64,000 bases of DNA. It comes from Abditibacterium sp. GTDB taxonomy: Bacteria; Armatimonadota; Abditibacteriia; Abditibacteriales; Abditibacteriaceae. A program made the position numbers and the translations under genes. The stretch spans positions 4,000,001 through 4,064,000 of the forward strand of contig CBDASK010000003.1 of assembly GCA_965199495.1 (NCBI GenBank), read 5' to 3'. The notes under the pieces were generated by a model, which saw only the letters and a program-made list of their open reading frames with translations, searched no databases and was not told where the DNA came from. Every line of letters starts with the position of its first letter. Position 1 is the stretch's first letter. Positions 59,992 through 64,000 of this stretch are shown here, one piece after another.

Positions 59992-61278
59992 ATGAATACC
60001 AAACCCACGCTATGGAACCGTTTCTGCGCCAGCGCGACCGGCGAAGTTTCCGCCGATACGCTCGAAGCCTATCGCCGCGCCAGCCTCGCGGTTTACGATG
60101 CGCTCGAACATTCCGAAACGCACCGCGCGGGCGCCAAAGCAGATGGCAAAAACGCCTGGACTTTGCCCAAATCCACGCAGGCCGAAATGCTCTGCACCTG
60201 GAACGCGTTCGTTTTGCAAACGCTGGGCGACCGCTTTCTGGACGCCGATTACGAAGGCGATCCGCACACCGTCGGGTTCGTGCCAGCGATTACGTCCGAT
60301 CAGATTTTGAGTTTTTATACCCAAGTCGAAGGCTGGCTCAACCGCGCGCAACAGGCGCACTTCAATCCCGACTATAAACTCGACGTATCTGTGCCCGCCG
60401 CCTTGCCCGCGTGGAGCGAAGTCGAGCCGTGTCCCAACGCGCATTTAGTCGGAATGCTCGAAGCGATGCGCGCCGTGCGCGATCACACCGAAGCGGCGAT
60501 TTTGTTCCTCCAAGATTCGCCCGCACAGACCGACGAACAAACCAAAAACGCCAACCAGATTCGCCAAGTTCACGCGTCGGCCCAAACCAAAGCGCGCTAT
60601 GCCGAAGATATGATGAACGGCAGCAATCCGACGCGCGATGTGCATGAACGCGTCGAGGAACACGTCAAAGAAGCGGTCGAAAGTTATTATTTGCTGGGCC
60701 AATTATTGGCGATGCCCGAACTGGCGAACAATGTTTTGAATCCGCCGAAACCACTGCCGCTACCAGCCACGCCGCCTTTGTCGCCGCCTTCGCCGTTTTA
60801 CGCGCCGTCGCCCAATCAATTCGCGCCACAAAACGCGCAATTGGCGTTGCCCAACTCGCCCGATTTCGATATGTGGTGCCTGACGGCGCCCGAAGCGCAA
60901 AGCAAATTTGCGCAAGACCGCGAAGCGGTGCGCGCGATTAAAACGTTGTGGCAACTCGATCCCGATCCGCGCCGCACCGTTGAAATTCAAAGCGAAATTA
61001 ATGCGGCCTTGGCGCGCGGCGAAATCGGTTATGCGAGCGACCAATGGGGCAAAAAGTTGGGCCATTTTTTCTGCGCGCCGTGGGGCAGCGTTTACCTTGC
61101 CAAACGCCCAGTGACAATCGGCGGCACACGCATGATGACGATGCAACAATTCATCTTCAACGTAACGTGCGAAGGCGTTAATCTGGGCGCGCCCTTCGAG
61201 CGCGAAATTATGACGGGCAATTTCACGCCGACCTCAAAATTTGAATACGGCGACCCCAACGAAGCGCCCGATCATTGA
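59992..61278 (+). CDS. Hypothetical two-domain protein with a Pro-rich linker
   Basis: 428-aa ORF 12 nt after czcA; helical N-domain, PPKPLPLPATPPLSPPSP linker, C-domain GHFFCAPW. Confidence 0.7.
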   Translation: MNTKPTLWNRFCASATGEVSADTLEAYRRASLAVYDALEHSETHRAGAKADGKNAWTLPKSTQAEMLCTWNAFVLQTLGDRFLDADYEGDPHTVGFVPAITSDQILSFYTQVEGWLNRAQQAHFNPDYKLDVSVPAALPAWSEVEPCPNAHLVGMLEAMRAVRDHTEAAILFLQDSPAQTDEQTKNANQIRQVHASAQTKARYAEDMMNGSNPTRDVHERVEEHVKEAVESYYLLGQLLAMPELANNVLNPPKPLPLPATPPLSPPSPFYAPSPNQFAPQNAQLALPNSPDFDMWCLTAPEAQSKFAQDREAVRAIKTLWQLDPDPRRTVEIQSEINAALARGEIGYASDQWGKKLGHFFCAPWGSVYLAKRPVTIGGTRMMTMQQFIFNVTCEGVNLGAPFEREIMTGNFTPTSKFEYGDPNEAPDH

Positions 61279-61304
61279 TAAATTTGCGGTAAGATATGGT
61301 GTGA

Positions 61305-61375
61305 AGTTCGGTCGTCCAACGGAAAGACACCCGCCTCTCACGCGGGGGATGCAGGTTCAAATCCCGCCCGAACTT
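61305..61375 (+). tRNA. tRNA-Glu(CTC)-like, atypical
   Basis: AGTTCGG/CCGAACT acceptor, GTC/GAC D-stem, CCCGC-CTCTCAC-GCGGG anticodon arm, GGTTCAAATCC T-arm with an A.C mismatch; no CCA. Confidence 0.7.
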
Positions 61376-61383
61376 CGCATTTG

Positions 61384-61455
61384 GAAGTCGTCGTCTAACG
61401 GAAAGACTCCGGTCTCCAGAACCGAAGAATGAAGGTTCAAATCCTTCCGACTTCC
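61384..61455 (+). tRNA. tRNA-Trp(CCA)-like, atypical
   Basis: GAAGTCG/CGACTTC acceptor, CCGGT-CTCCAGA-ACCGA anticodon arm (C.A mismatch, G37), GAAGG-TTCAAAT-CCTTC T-arm. Confidence 0.7.
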
Positions 61456-61465
61456 ACCGTTATGA

Positions 61466-61536
61466 AAAGCCGTAGCTCAATGGAAGAGCGCCTGAATTGC
61501 ATTCAGGAAATGTGGGTTCAAGTCCCGTCGGCTTTT
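61466..61536 (+). tRNA. tRNA-Ala(TGC)-like, atypical (no G3.U70)
   Basis: AAAGCCG/CGGCTTT acceptor, TAGCTCAATGGAAGAGC D-arm, CCTGA-ATTGCAT-TCAGG anticodon arm, GGTTCAAGTCC T-arm. Confidence 0.7.
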
Positions 61537-61544
61537 CACCTCTC

Positions 61545-62876
61545 ATGACCGATTTGGAAATCACGCTCGCCACATTGCAACAATGGGCCGATGATCCGTC
61601 TTTGATTGACGACAACGCGCGCGCCAAATCTCTCGTCGCCAAAATCCATCGCGAAGGCGCGCGTAATACCAACAAAGCCGCGCGCGATGCGCGACGCAAG
61701 CGAGACCGCGCGAAAATCGAGGCGACGGGCCGCGTGCAAATCGCCACCGATACGACGCGCGCCTTGCCCGCGATTGCGTCATCAAATAATCAACTCGAAC
61801 GCGCGCGCTTTTGTCCGATTTGTCGCGCGCAATTTTCGCAGTTGCATCATTTTTATCACGCTTATTGCCCGCCTTGCGCCGCGTTTAACTGGGGAAAACG
61901 CGAGCAAACCGCCGATTTGTCGGGGCGCATCGCATTAATTACGGGCGGGCGCATCAAAATTGGTTTCGAGTGCGCTTTGAAGTTGTTGCGTGCTGGCAGC
62001 CACGTCGTCGCCACAACGCGCTTCGCCCGCGATGCCGCGCGGCGTTATTCTCTGCAACCCGACTTTGAAGAATGGCGCGACCGCCTCGAAATCGTCGCGC
62101 TCGACTTGCGGTTTTTGCCAGAAGTCGAGCATTTTTGTGCGCATCTCAATCGAACGTTTTCGCATCTCGATATTACAATCAATAACGCCGCGCAAACCAT
62201 CGCGCGCCCACCGCAGTTTTACGCGCACTTGCGCCAAGCGGCGGGGCTTGCGCCCTCTTCCAATCGTGAATCTGCCTTCGCATCAGGATTGGAAGAGGAC
62301 GCAAGCCCCGATCCCGTAAAACTCGCGCTGGCTTCCTTTTTTCCGCCCGACCAATTCGATGCCGACGGCCAGCAACTCGATTTGCGCCCGCGCAATTCGT
62401 GGACGGCGCGTTTGGACGAAATTGAAACGCTCGAAGCCGCCGAAAATTACGTCGTCGGCGCGCTCGCTCCGTTCGTTTTGACGGGCCAATTGCGCGCGCT
62501 TCTTAAACGCAGTCCGCACGCACGCAAATTTGTGATTCAGGCGTCAGCGATGGAAGGCAATTTCTCGCGCCAGAGCAAAACTTCGCGTCATCCGCAGACC
62601 AACATGACCAAGGCCGCGCTCAATATGTTGGTGCGCACCTCAGCGCCCGATTTAGCGCGCGACGGAATTTATTGTAATGCCGTAGATACCGGCTGGATCT
62701 CCGATGAAAATCCGCATCCGACAGCGCAAGATTTGCGCGCCGATGGTTTCGTGCCGCCGCTCGATTGCGTGGATGGCGCCGCGCGTTTACTCGTTCCTAT
62801 TTTTAGTGGGTTGGACGAATTGCGCGAACCGATTTTTGGTTGTTTTCTGAAAGATTATCGCGCGCATTCTTGGTGA
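61545..62876 (+). CDS. Atypical SDR-family oxidoreductase with an N-terminal Cys4 zinc-ribbon-like segment
   Basis: CPIC...YCPPC, ALITGGRIKIG, INNAAQT, SAMEG.F, HPQTNMTKAALNM, AVDTGWI; ATG 8 nt after the third tRNA-like gene. Confidence 0.85.
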   Translation: MTDLEITLATLQQWADDPSLIDDNARAKSLVAKIHREGARNTNKAARDARRKRDRAKIEATGRVQIATDTTRALPAIASSNNQLERARFCPICRAQFSQLHHFYHAYCPPCAAFNWGKREQTADLSGRIALITGGRIKIGFECALKLLRAGSHVVATTRFARDAARRYSLQPDFEEWRDRLEIVALDLRFLPEVEHFCAHLNRTFSHLDITINNAAQTIARPPQFYAHLRQAAGLAPSSNRESAFASGLEEDASPDPVKLALASFFPPDQFDADGQQLDLRPRNSWTARLDEIETLEAAENYVVGALAPFVLTGQLRALLKRSPHARKFVIQASAMEGNFSRQSKTSRHPQTNMTKAALNMLVRTSAPDLARDGIYCNAVDTGWISDENPHPTAQDLRADGFVPPLDCVDGAARLLVPIFSGLDELREPIFGCFLKDYRAHSW

Positions 62877-62880
62877 AAAT

Positions 62881-63000
62881 TTAGTCACAAAGGACTACAA
62901 AGAAGCTGGAGGAAATTTGGAATACGAAGAAAATGCTTTCTTGCTCACTTGAAAATTTCCTCCAGCTTCTTTGTAGTCCTTTGTGCCCCTTTGTGGCTAA
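62881..63000. repeat. Inverted-repeat element (TTAGTCACA...TGTGGCTAA)
   Basis: cacaaaggactacaaagaagctggaggaaattt ... aaatttcctccagcttctttgtagtcctttgtg; same family as 6614-6751. Confidence 0.85.
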
Positions 63001-63008
63001 AATAAATT

Positions 63009-64000
63009 ATGTTTCAACCGCCCATTTCCTGTCCCGTCGTGCGCGTGCCTGCCGTCGTGCCGTGCGACGCACGCGAACTCGATGGACTGATCGGGTTTTT
63101 AGAATCTGATGCGCCCATCGAAGAAATTCAAGCGTTCGCGCGTGGCACTTTGCTACCCGATGGCCGACTCGATTTATGCAAACAGAGCGTCGGCGCCGTC
63201 GGTTGTGCGCGCATTGTCGAAGCGCTCCAAAATAATTCGCGCGTCAAAAGCGTTTTGCTCGGCACCGACGCTATCGGCGACCAAGGCGTGTTTGCGGTCG
63301 CGCAATTGGTTGAATCGAACCCGAATCTGGAAGTGATTTATCTCGGTTGCAACAACATTTCATCCGTCGGCGCCGCAGAAATCGCGCGCGTTATGGCGAA
63401 TAATTCGAGCGTCAAAGGTTTGTGGCTCAAGCGCAATCCCATCGGCGGCGACGGCGTGGCTGCCCTCGCGGCGATGCTCCAAACCAACGCGCATTTGCAA
63501 ATTCTCGACATCGTGAATTGCGGTTTTAGCGTCGCATCGTTCGCGCGATTGTGTGAAACGTTGCGCACTGATAATCGCACTCTGACCCGGCTTTACACGG
63601 GCGGCAACGGTTTGGGCGCCGTCAGCGCGGCGCATTTGGGCGAAGTTTTGAACGAGAATAATGCGCTGCAAGGTCTCTTTTTAAACGTTGGCGATCTGGG
63701 CGACGAAGGCACGCAATTTCTCGTCGAAACCTTGAAACCAAGCGCGAGTTTGCGCGATTTGGGTTTGGGTTCTAACGCTATCGGCATCGCCGGTTTGCGC
63801 GCCTTGTCCGAAAATTGCGCCGCGCTCGAATCGCTCGATTTGGGACGTGCCGCTTCGCAAACGGCGCTGGGCGCGAGCGGCAACGATTTCGCGGGCGGCG
63901 GCCAGTTATGCGCCGATTTGATGGATTCAGCGCGCGTTTTACGGCGTTTGAATTTGCGAGGAACGCGATTGAAAACCGACGATTTCGCACCGATATTTGA
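63009..64000 (+). CDS. Ribonuclease-inhibitor-like leucine-rich repeat protein (GALA-like; 3' end runs off the window)
   Basis: Not in the ORF track. Manual translation: MFQPPISCP...GTLLPDGRLDLCKQ, then ~28-aa repeats VKSVLLGTDAIGDQGV, LEVIYLGCNNISSVGA, VKGLWLKRNPIGGDGV. Confidence 0.8.
   Translation, partial: MFQPPISCPVVRVPAVVPCDARELDGLIGFLESDAPIEEIQAFARGTLLPDGRLDLCKQSVGAVGCARIVEALQNNSRVKSVLLGTDAIGDQGVFAVAQLVESNPNLEVIYLGCNNISSVGAAEIARVMANNSSVKGLWLKRNPIGGDGVAALAAMLQTNAHLQILDIVNCGFSVASFARLCETLRTDNRTLTRLYTGGNGLGAVSAAHLGEVLNENNALQGLFLNVGDLGDEGTQFLVETLKPSASLRDLGLGSNAIGIAGLRALSENCAALESLDLGRAASQTALGASGNDFAGGGQLCADLMDSARVLRRLNLRGTRLKTDDFAPIF

Follow-up and report, generated by a model that had tools for sequence, protein, structure and literature searches.

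The data presented here suggest that three tandem tRNA-like RNAs of an Abditibacterium sp. belong to a family of tRNA-shaped units marked by an eighth acceptor base pair, and that their array is the RNA part of a patchily distributed module in which such units accompany one family of short-chain dehydrogenases/reductases (SDRs) and, usually, a leucine-rich-repeat (LRR) protein. The structure of the units and their association with the SDR and LRR genes are well supported; for the mechanism we offer a hypothesis. The features of the window, the whole stretch of 64,000 nt that was analysed, are as follows:

61286..61295, + strand: putative -10 element, GCGG-TAAGAT, 7 nt before the first G of the unit 1 stem
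61303..61376, + strand: unit 1, tRNA-like RNA with a 9-bp acceptor stem (including G-2:C74 and A-1:U73) and a Glu-type anticodon arm (CTC), from ARAGORN, Rfam and MFE folding
61383..61455, + strand: unit 2, tRNA-like RNA with an 8-bp acceptor stem closed by G-1:C73, then ACC, and a Trp-type arm (CCA), from ARAGORN, Rfam and MFE folding
61464..61537, + strand: unit 3, tRNA-like RNA with a 9-bp acceptor stem, then ACC, and an Ala-type arm (TGC), without G3.U70
61545..62876, + strand: atypical short-chain dehydrogenase/reductase, 443 aa (Pfam adh_short)
63009..64000, continuing past the window end, + strand: leucine-rich-repeat (LRR_6) protein, 381 aa (Pfam LRR_6; full ORF in the genome)

ARAGORN called the three units as Glu(CTC) at 61305-61376, Trp(CCA) at 61383-61458 and Ala(TGC) at 61466-61537, and RF00005 was their only Rfam match, at 52.4, 58.5 and 63.4 bits, respectively, which bears out the original prediction of three cloverleaves lying 8-10 nt apart (gaps of 8 and 10 nt in canonical numbering). 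The acceptor stems of 9, 8 and 9 bp that had been read from the letters are likewise present (61303-61311/61368-61376, 61383-61390/61448-61455 and 61464-61472/61529-61537, with a possible ninth pair, U-2:A74, in unit 2), and at full length they appear in the MFE folds of the single units (z of -1.6, -2.4 and -3.7). The irregularities described earlier could also be located: the T-stem mismatch of the Glu unit is A51.C63 (C13.A22 is a further one), the anticodon-stem mismatch of the Trp unit is C27.A43, accompanied by G37, and the Ala unit lacks G3.U70 in either register. Alanine identity calls for G3.U70 and A73, and tryptophan identity for G73; the canonical isotype identity elements for Glu, Trp and Ala are absent from the three units. 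Contigs of sequencing run X1, which may be the source sample, showed no sequence differences from this stretch.

The genome of the window (G000; 4.8 Mb, 95% complete, 66 ARAGORN tRNA calls) has canonical isoacceptors elsewhere, at C3:2741985 (Glu-CTC), 3787750 and 3787860 (Trp-CCA) and 1957479 (Ala-TGC), and 59 of its tRNAs served as a control set once the three units and four dubious calls had been removed. None of the ordinary tRNA genes in this genome encodes CCA, so the missing CCA, although correctly seen in all three units, is no peculiarity and is uninformative. Nor is a single extra pair rare by chance, since positions -1 and 73 form a Watson-Crick pair in 9 of the 59 control tRNAs (U:A in eight, and G:C in tRNA-His); what lies beyond chance is the conservation and covariation of that pair in homologues.

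When 61 genomes were searched at the DNA level, G002, G003, G004, G012, G016 and G020 proved to have related arrays and G054 a single unit, with homologues of unit 2 in G002, G003, G012 and G016 and a degenerate copy of it in G004. An IUPAC pattern in which the D-loop, the T-loop and three purines on the 5' side are fixed and the 3' acceptor strand is left free matched 10 of 401 phylum genomes and 40 metagenome loci, 12 of the latter having long-stemmed units (seven with an SDR in the locus) and the remainder ordinary tRNAs. Model R1, made from 27 units and run on 48 loci, gave 88 matches, from which three canonical tRNAs, one parsing case and four duplicates were subtracted and to which 16 units found by ARAGORN or by eye were added; the final census holds 83 distinct units in 24 SDR-containing loci and 13 more in SDR-less loci. 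Arrays range from 1 to 10 units, the maximum being ten in tandem at L091, and the breadth of the family beyond its own phylum rests on the 40 metagenome pattern hits and three plasmid regions. Within the class, weaker R1 matches in three further genomes are ordinary tRNAs, and the next-best non-member match of the family model is a true tRNA-His. Two related units (L145 and L189) have a 7-bp Asp-like stem and G73, and the unit stems appear to resemble the tRNA-Asp acceptor of L016 plus one or two A:U pairs.

Some members depart from this plan. At L035:2457-2552, at L119:3021-3129 and in the upstream unit of L122, long insertions replace the anticodon arm and the long acceptor stem is kept. Long-stemmed units also occur with no SDR within the locus examined (L080, L109, L081, L098 and L104), the L080 array ending in a terminator-like hairpin. 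Orphan ORFs without a family match are interleaved with units at L033:8250-10464 (G002), L034:8772-9842 (G012) and L145:8457-11855 (G054), and the ESM Atlas gave no match for the one between the G012 arrays. A phage origin was considered and rejected, as a pattern scan of viral contigs returned five loci, none long-stemmed, and a second pattern only one, without a tRNA call; BLAST found no match in phages (or, for the L082 array, in plasmids), and of two SDR scans of viral contigs one returned nothing and the other a single contig-edge locus.

Counted over 83 units that include non-independent kin and were gathered with a pattern and a model that both favour the feature, positions -1 and 73 form a Watson-Crick pair in 67 (G:C 53, A:U 11, U:A 2, C:G 1) and G.U in 8 more, whereas shuffling the 3' partners leads one to expect 45.1 +/- 3.2 Watson-Crick pairs, and 0 of 20000 shuffles reached 67. 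In a MAFFT alignment (A1) this column is paired in all 27 rows, five of them with both sides changed, and sliding the partners abolishes the signal. Position 73 is a pyrimidine in 76/83 units, against 12/59 host tRNAs. In two less biased sets, the pair is present in 12 of 16 units at protein-reached loci, and 15 later units called by ARAGORN alone include 11 with G:C and one with G.U; of 114 tRNAs taken as a second control from other loci that were retrieved, 15 have the pair (four G:C, three of these being tRNA-His). This covariation indicates that the eighth pair is under selection, and it is helix length, not a His determinant, that seems conserved, since A:U versions exist. The ninth pair was rejected as a family feature, with -2:74 at chance level (27/83 vs 22.6 expected) and -3:75 not above chance in the 83 units. 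The over-long stems noticed at the outset thus stand as a family hallmark at 8 bp, but the ninth pair belongs to a lineage subset. The T-stem of 5 bp is itself backed by covariation in alignment A1, for an acceptor/T branch of 13-14 bp.

The units share a chassis made up of the 8-bp stem, pyrimidine 73 and a GGAA D-loop (A20), the last found in 78/83 units and 0/59 host tRNAs, partly by selection; D-arms are short and variable loops run to about 3-6 nt. This one chassis carries 23 distinct anticodons, diverse and mismatched to the acceptor as in allo-tRNAs, and the first-unit chassis, which has Glu-CTC here, bears Asp-ATC, Ala-TGC/CGC or Gly-GCC arms in relatives. When the arm was compared with host tRNAs after masking of the anticodon, its best match had the anticodon's own amino acid in 13 of 36 units from the family's own phylum (mean of 4.1 in permutations, 0/5000), the match being weak outside the phylum (7/31 vs 3.5 expected, 218/5000). 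Because the arm context fits the anticodon's own isotype, exchange of whole arms, not of single bases, is suggested; of the duplication with anticodon change originally proposed, the common chassis is upheld, but whole anticodon arms appear to have been swapped.

Of the 81 units that ARAGORN called at 27 loci, 80 have an anticodon with a C (vs 36/59 host tRNAs and 61/112 tRNAs from other loci) and 74 have C35 or C36 (vs 25/59 and 47/112), a bias that was noticed post hoc in related, non-independent units. All 14 later three-letter anticodons contain C as well, several of them coming from related genomes, and descent from a few Asp-, Glu-, Gly- or Ala-like founders could explain part of the bias. 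The isotypes present in the 81 are Ala, Glu, Asp, Gly, Ser(GCT), Trp, Cys, Met, TCA, Leu, Arg and Val; Lys, Asn, Gln, His, Tyr, Phe, Ile, Pro and Thr are absent, and a degenerate TGG unit lies below the ARAGORN threshold. The family tolerates the anticodons TCA (4/81, all short-armed), ATC, AGC, ACC and ACA, short-arm Ser and Leu units, and loops of 6 or 8 nt. By parser, 16/83 anticodon loops are other than 7 nt, nine of which are 5-nt calls, mostly 7-nt loops with a 32-38 pair.

From the position of the putative -10 element, we infer that the unit 1 transcript would be leaderless or nearly so. Similar motifs lie ahead of several housekeeping tRNA genes of G000, and TAAAAT is found 5-7 nt ahead of the first-unit stem at L031-L034, L077, L097 and L119. 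The sigma-70 scan did not report the element, and such a box is weak evidence for a 5' end, because an ordinary tRNA-Ser has one only 10 nt from +1. At the other end, the base after G-1:C73 is A in 25 and C in 19 of the 53 units concerned; ACC follows in 10 units and full ACCA in L086, L109 and L081, and CC after N73 occurs in 0/59 host tRNA genes. The 3' sequence appears to favour an 8/5 arrangement with a discriminator in the family's own phylum, and the low-GC arrays would look more like C73-CCA.

The SDR gene begins 7 nt after the end of unit 3. Its product has a long basic N-terminal helix, a putative zinc finger (CxxC...HxxYHxxCxxC) and a Rossmann fold with the classical TGxxxGIG motif, and C90, C93, H101, H105, C108, C111 and K356 are invariant. 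The catalytic Tyr of YxxxK is missing: Lys356 is invariant, and H/Q351-T352 stands in the Tyr place. The AF2 model (pLDDT 84.7) gave a fold match of Z 26.2 with an rmsd of 3.3 over 235 residues, which spans residues 123-443 only; fold searches returned only generic SDRs, with residues 1-120 barely covered, and the ESM Atlas only unnamed SDR clusters. On a quick tree (midpoint root; L150 truncated upstream) the RNA label needs 3 changes vs 14 when shuffled, and the RNA-less SDRs form two nested clades; the tree would fit an old RNA-SDR link with losses. The net charge of the N-terminal helix is +5 to +9 in the 15 RNA-linked SDRs nearest the query and +2 to +5 in 12 SDRs that lack RNA, a contrast that comes from one RNA-less clade and must be read beside the just +2 to +7 of low-GC RNA-linked SDRs.

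The downstream SDR and LRR genes had gone unmentioned in the original observation. Within the class, the SDR and the RNA pattern occur in the same 7 of 31 genomes. In the phylum sample, 49 of 401 genomes have the SDR and 17 the LRR gene; all 17 of the latter have SDR-linked RNA units, the three parts being contiguous in 15 and on different contigs in G016 and G335. The LRR search predicted units in four genomes (G074, G157, G335 and G388), and units were present in all four loci. The 49 SDR-positive genomes divide into 18 with RNA linked, 26 RNA-free within the flanks inspected (about 1.5-3 kb, in some cases less) and 5 outside the inspection; with second copies counted, 33 SDR loci of the phylum are RNA-free. 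The slot of the LRR gene is variable, being taken by a SUKH gene after the RNA-SDR locus of G054 and by a YqeY-like gene after the RNA-linked SDR of G016; the RNA-SDR link occurs without an LRR gene in L142, L091 and L119, and in L123 units come after the LRR gene. Further afield, a plasmid of Fulvitalea axinellae (Bacteroidota) has three units 3' of its SDR, a Deinococcus plasmid has one unit without the stem extension, and the SDR region of a Chondrinema plasmid has no unit. On low-GC contigs an SDR of 35% identity has up to 10 units behind it, and next come TatD, an L-domain protein or Sir2; L082 is probably cyanobacterial, judging from its DUF3611 neighbour.

Several neighbouring features were also recorded. 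The upstream ORF (59992-61278, 428 aa) has no Pfam, NCBIfam or PADLOC match, and its 3' end has homologues in G001, G002, G003, G010, G011 and G012; as these sit apart from RNA arrays, we do not count it in the module. A long inverted repeat, probably a REP-like element, lies between the SDR and LRR genes at 62880-63000. In G020 and L108, a DUF2201 vWA-metallopeptidase gene is convergent beyond the LRR gene (L036:10746-15722 and L108:6698-7795); G020 has AAA and LRV genes there too, with similar ORFs on G016:C79 (L164).

The original view that the units are not ordinary decoders is supported by the selected extension, the missing isotype identity elements and the canonical isoacceptors elsewhere, and we consider it probable that they are not used for decoding. 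Of what function they might have instead, we tentatively prefer that of uncharged decoys or baits that show host-like anticodon loops within an SDR-LRR protective module. The array would be transcribed from a housekeeping-type -10 promoter and the transcript cut to monomers that retain the long stem. The 13-14-bp acceptor/T domain and the absent identity elements would keep synthetases and EF-Tu off (in tRNA-Sec, an 8-bp acceptor weakens EF-Tu binding 100-fold, according to passages of PMC7609411), so that the units could present their loops without decoding and act as decoys or baits for agents that hit tRNA anticodon loops at C, such as anticodon nucleases and modifying toxins of competitors or phages. 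In this picture the LRR protein would serve as a partner of immunity type, and the SDR would bind RNA through its basic helix and zinc finger and respond in an NAD(P)-dependent way. The decoy reading draws on the retention of loops like those of the host, on the bias towards C, on the patchy distribution and on neighbours of immunity type; LRR and SUKH are immunity classes of polyimmunity loci (PMC3482391, in the passages seen), and toxins that modify specific anticodon loops are reported (PMC13617354). Against it stand the many RNA-less SDRs, the lack of any toxin or nuclease gene consistently linked to the arrays, and PADLOC, in which 13 of 14 module and neighbour proteins had no hit and one a hit at E 0.0099 only. 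Moreover, if CCA were added directly after C73, the 53 G-1:C73 units would have tRNA-His geometry and could be chargeable and EF-Tu-bound (PMC9976931, in part). With more reserve still, one may picture a cross-phylum RNP defence or stress module: an expandable library of captured arms on a translation-proof tRNA chassis, serving as decoys or tripwires for C-directed anticodon attackers, with readout by a zinc-finger pseudo-SDR and the LRR protein, an RNA counterpart of the polyimmunity locus.

The tie between RNA and SDR, which is found in every lineage, LRR-less ones too, could also mean that the RNAs are dedicated SDR ligands, scaffolds or substrates, in the manner of the Ro60-Y RNA RNP, used for example to sense or reverse chemical damage at anticodon-loop cytidines. 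The wide span of the RNA-linked SDRs (about 35-80% identity) with so few label changes, their more basic N-terminal helix and the atypical active site all speak for this; RNA-less SDRs are common, however, and the charge contrast has the limits given above, and we regard this role as unlikely. The G-1:C73 pair raises another prospect, that the units are mischarged translating tRNAs, cf. allo-tRNAs, which put His (through G-1:C73) or Arg (through A20 and C35) at Ala, Glu, Asp, Gly, Trp, Cys, Ser or UGA codons in a stress or toxin function. U-2 is the commonest base before G-1 (24/53), and U-2/G-1/C73 makes E. coli RNase P keep G-1 (PMC5499578, in the relevant passages); G-1:C73 suffices for His acceptance of minihelices (passages of PMC9976931), and isotype-matched arms would suit decoding. 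The irregular polycistronic G-1 tRNA1s of Mukai are charged by HisRS despite Thr anticodons and yet, as far as the passages of PMC5389517 go, inserted no His in vivo and are not used in translation. Mistranslation is rendered unlikely, too, by the 30/83 units without G-1:C73, two of the three in the window included, by nine-pair stems and non-7-nt loops, by the single HisRS in the genome, and by the cost that active mistranslators would presumably have under a housekeeping-type promoter. A dedicated charging or CCA machinery was rejected, as G000 has only that one HisRS and only one CCA/poly(A) family member.

The position of the arrays suggests a role in cis, with the units as processing or stabilising elements at which RNase P/Z sets the 5' ends of the SDR and other mRNAs: the last unit ends no more than about 30 nt before the SDR start codon at most loci, and units precede other operon genes too (L033, L034 and L091). 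But one unit would be enough for this, where L091 has ten; the L080 array has no co-oriented gene behind it, and that of L123 comes after the LRR gene; the conserved anticodon-arm repertoire is left unexplained. Since SDR-less arrays exist (L080, L109 and L098), the RNA is not merely a cis element, and we find this role improbable. Least credible to us are ordinary or decaying accessory tRNAs, the remnant of an L-array, processed at 7 bp if expressed and extended only by incidental precursor pairing. The normal Rfam tRNA scores, the degenerate copies and the few 7-bp Asp-like units with G73 fit such an origin, and ordinary pre-tRNAs can have one or two extra pairs and still be cut canonically (PMC5499578, in part). 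The eighth pair covaries across distant lineages, however, which speaks against remnants or pseudogenes as first suggested; pyrimidine 73 prevails, the acceptors do not fit the isotypes, the repertoire is restricted and the SDR link tight, and the true L-array of a relative (L161) is without these features. On the sequences compared, we regard this explanation as largely refuted.

Standard tools call the units ordinary tRNAs, those with opal 'SeC' and ANN anticodons included, which hides the family and can distort tRNA counts and genetic-code inferences. With the units it becomes possible to test a short-armed tRNA whose acceptor/T domain measures 13-14 bp, and they tie an uncharacterised, widespread SDR family (3701 homologues) to RNA. 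If the decoy reading is true, they would be a direct natural case of tRNA-shaped bait against anticodon-targeting toxins, an idea proposed for the cyanobacterial L-array and, in the passages of PMC8421152, not shown there.

Other unusual RNA loci were encountered alongside the array. About 240 kb from it (G000:C3 ~4302900-4308330; L167:7900-13326, - strand), tandem YrlA-like repeats with four Rfam YrlA hits of 32-38 bits (gathering score 69) lie 3' of two orphan genes, a ThiF gene and a gene of 526 aa that matches Ro60-vWA weakly; this is possibly a divergent Ro60/Y-RNA array. An ochre (TTA) anticodon tRNA at G000:C3:4284143-4284216 (L168:6144-6217, - strand), with a 7-bp stem similar to family acceptors, sits among short, mostly unannotated ORFs and one AAA gene in what may be a prophage. 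Accessory tRNAs of G000 comprise a Gln-Asn-Leu-Leu cluster with short-armed Leu(TAA/CAA) (C3:1551680-1552003), a short-armed Leu(TAG) (C3:3473050-3473125), an irregular Tyr/Ser pair (C3:4309188-4309380), Ile(TAT) (C3:4621966-4622040) and an odd Ala(CGC) (C2:14987-15057). Viral and metagenome contigs (L052-L055, L078, L088 and L107) carry a G3.U70 tRNA-like gene with an irregular anticodon loop, and in a relative at least 10 accessory tRNAs, all with 7-bp stems, form a cluster of the L-array type that is separate from the family (L161; G013:C40 ~477000-480000).

An 8-bp stem closed by G-1:C73 (53/83 units, 1/3 in the window) would, depending on the 3' end used, resemble that of tRNA-His; a GTG anticodon occurs in 0/81, A:U and 9-bp versions exist, and the host has its own tRNA-His; identity with tRNA-His was rejected on the anticodon. 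Bacterial tRNA-Sec (8/5) likewise has a 13-bp acceptor/T domain, and some units read TCA; these are short-armed, however, and the units have neither the long variable arm nor the 6-bp D-stem of tRNA-Sec, their anticodons are mostly sense (CTC, CCA and TGC in the window), and the SelA family was not found in the 95% complete G000. YrlA and other Y RNAs that work with Ro60 also mimic tRNAs and are encoded, often several to a locus, next to the gene of their protein partner, but YrlA combines a rearranged tRNA module with a Ro60-binding stem (PMC4201824, in part), whereas the units are complete, unpermuted cloverleaves beside an SDR. With no YrlA hit at the gathering threshold in the window, and with SDR and LRR genes as neighbours, this identity was set aside; the TROVE family was not found in G000, and a divergent Ro60-vWA gene is present elsewhere in it. 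The cyanobacterial trn L-array is an accessory tRNA array with a proposed nuclease-sponge role, and has 26 genes, 23 of them charged, that are co-regulated with rtcB (PMC8421152, PMC10272220, in the passages available). Our arrays differ in having 1-10 units, non-canonical stems and a restricted repertoire from which nine amino acids are absent, and they are not L-arrays; a link to RNA repair was also rejected, as RtcB lies about 1.8 Mb off and no tRNA was called at its locus.

No matching system was found for the RNA-SDR-LRR module as a whole, and the open full-text literature, which leaves most subscription papers outside its scope, yielded no description of the family or of its SDR link, nor did passages of PMC13092985 contain anything of relevance; the family is apparently undescribed. 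Its nearest analogues are the allo-tRNAs and the irregular tRNA0/1/2 polycistrons (PMC5389517, in the passages seen), which have a long acceptor, varied non-cognate anticodons, polycistronic arrangement, some G-1 members and a proposed link to conflict. The branch of those RNAs, however, is 12 bp (8/4 or 9/3), their variable arm is mostly long and their G-1 members have GGU anticodons, whereas the units combine a 5-bp T-stem, and thus a 13-14-bp branch, with a variable loop that is short and a D-loop with GGAA, and have an SDR as partner. They also lack the tRNA-Sec-like D-arm, and four family D-loop signatures had no match in one supplementary file of PMC5389517, so that outright identity was rejected. 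Branch length, arms and sequences thus set the units apart from their nearest analogues, and at the RNA level we regard them as a variant of non-canonical tRNAs.
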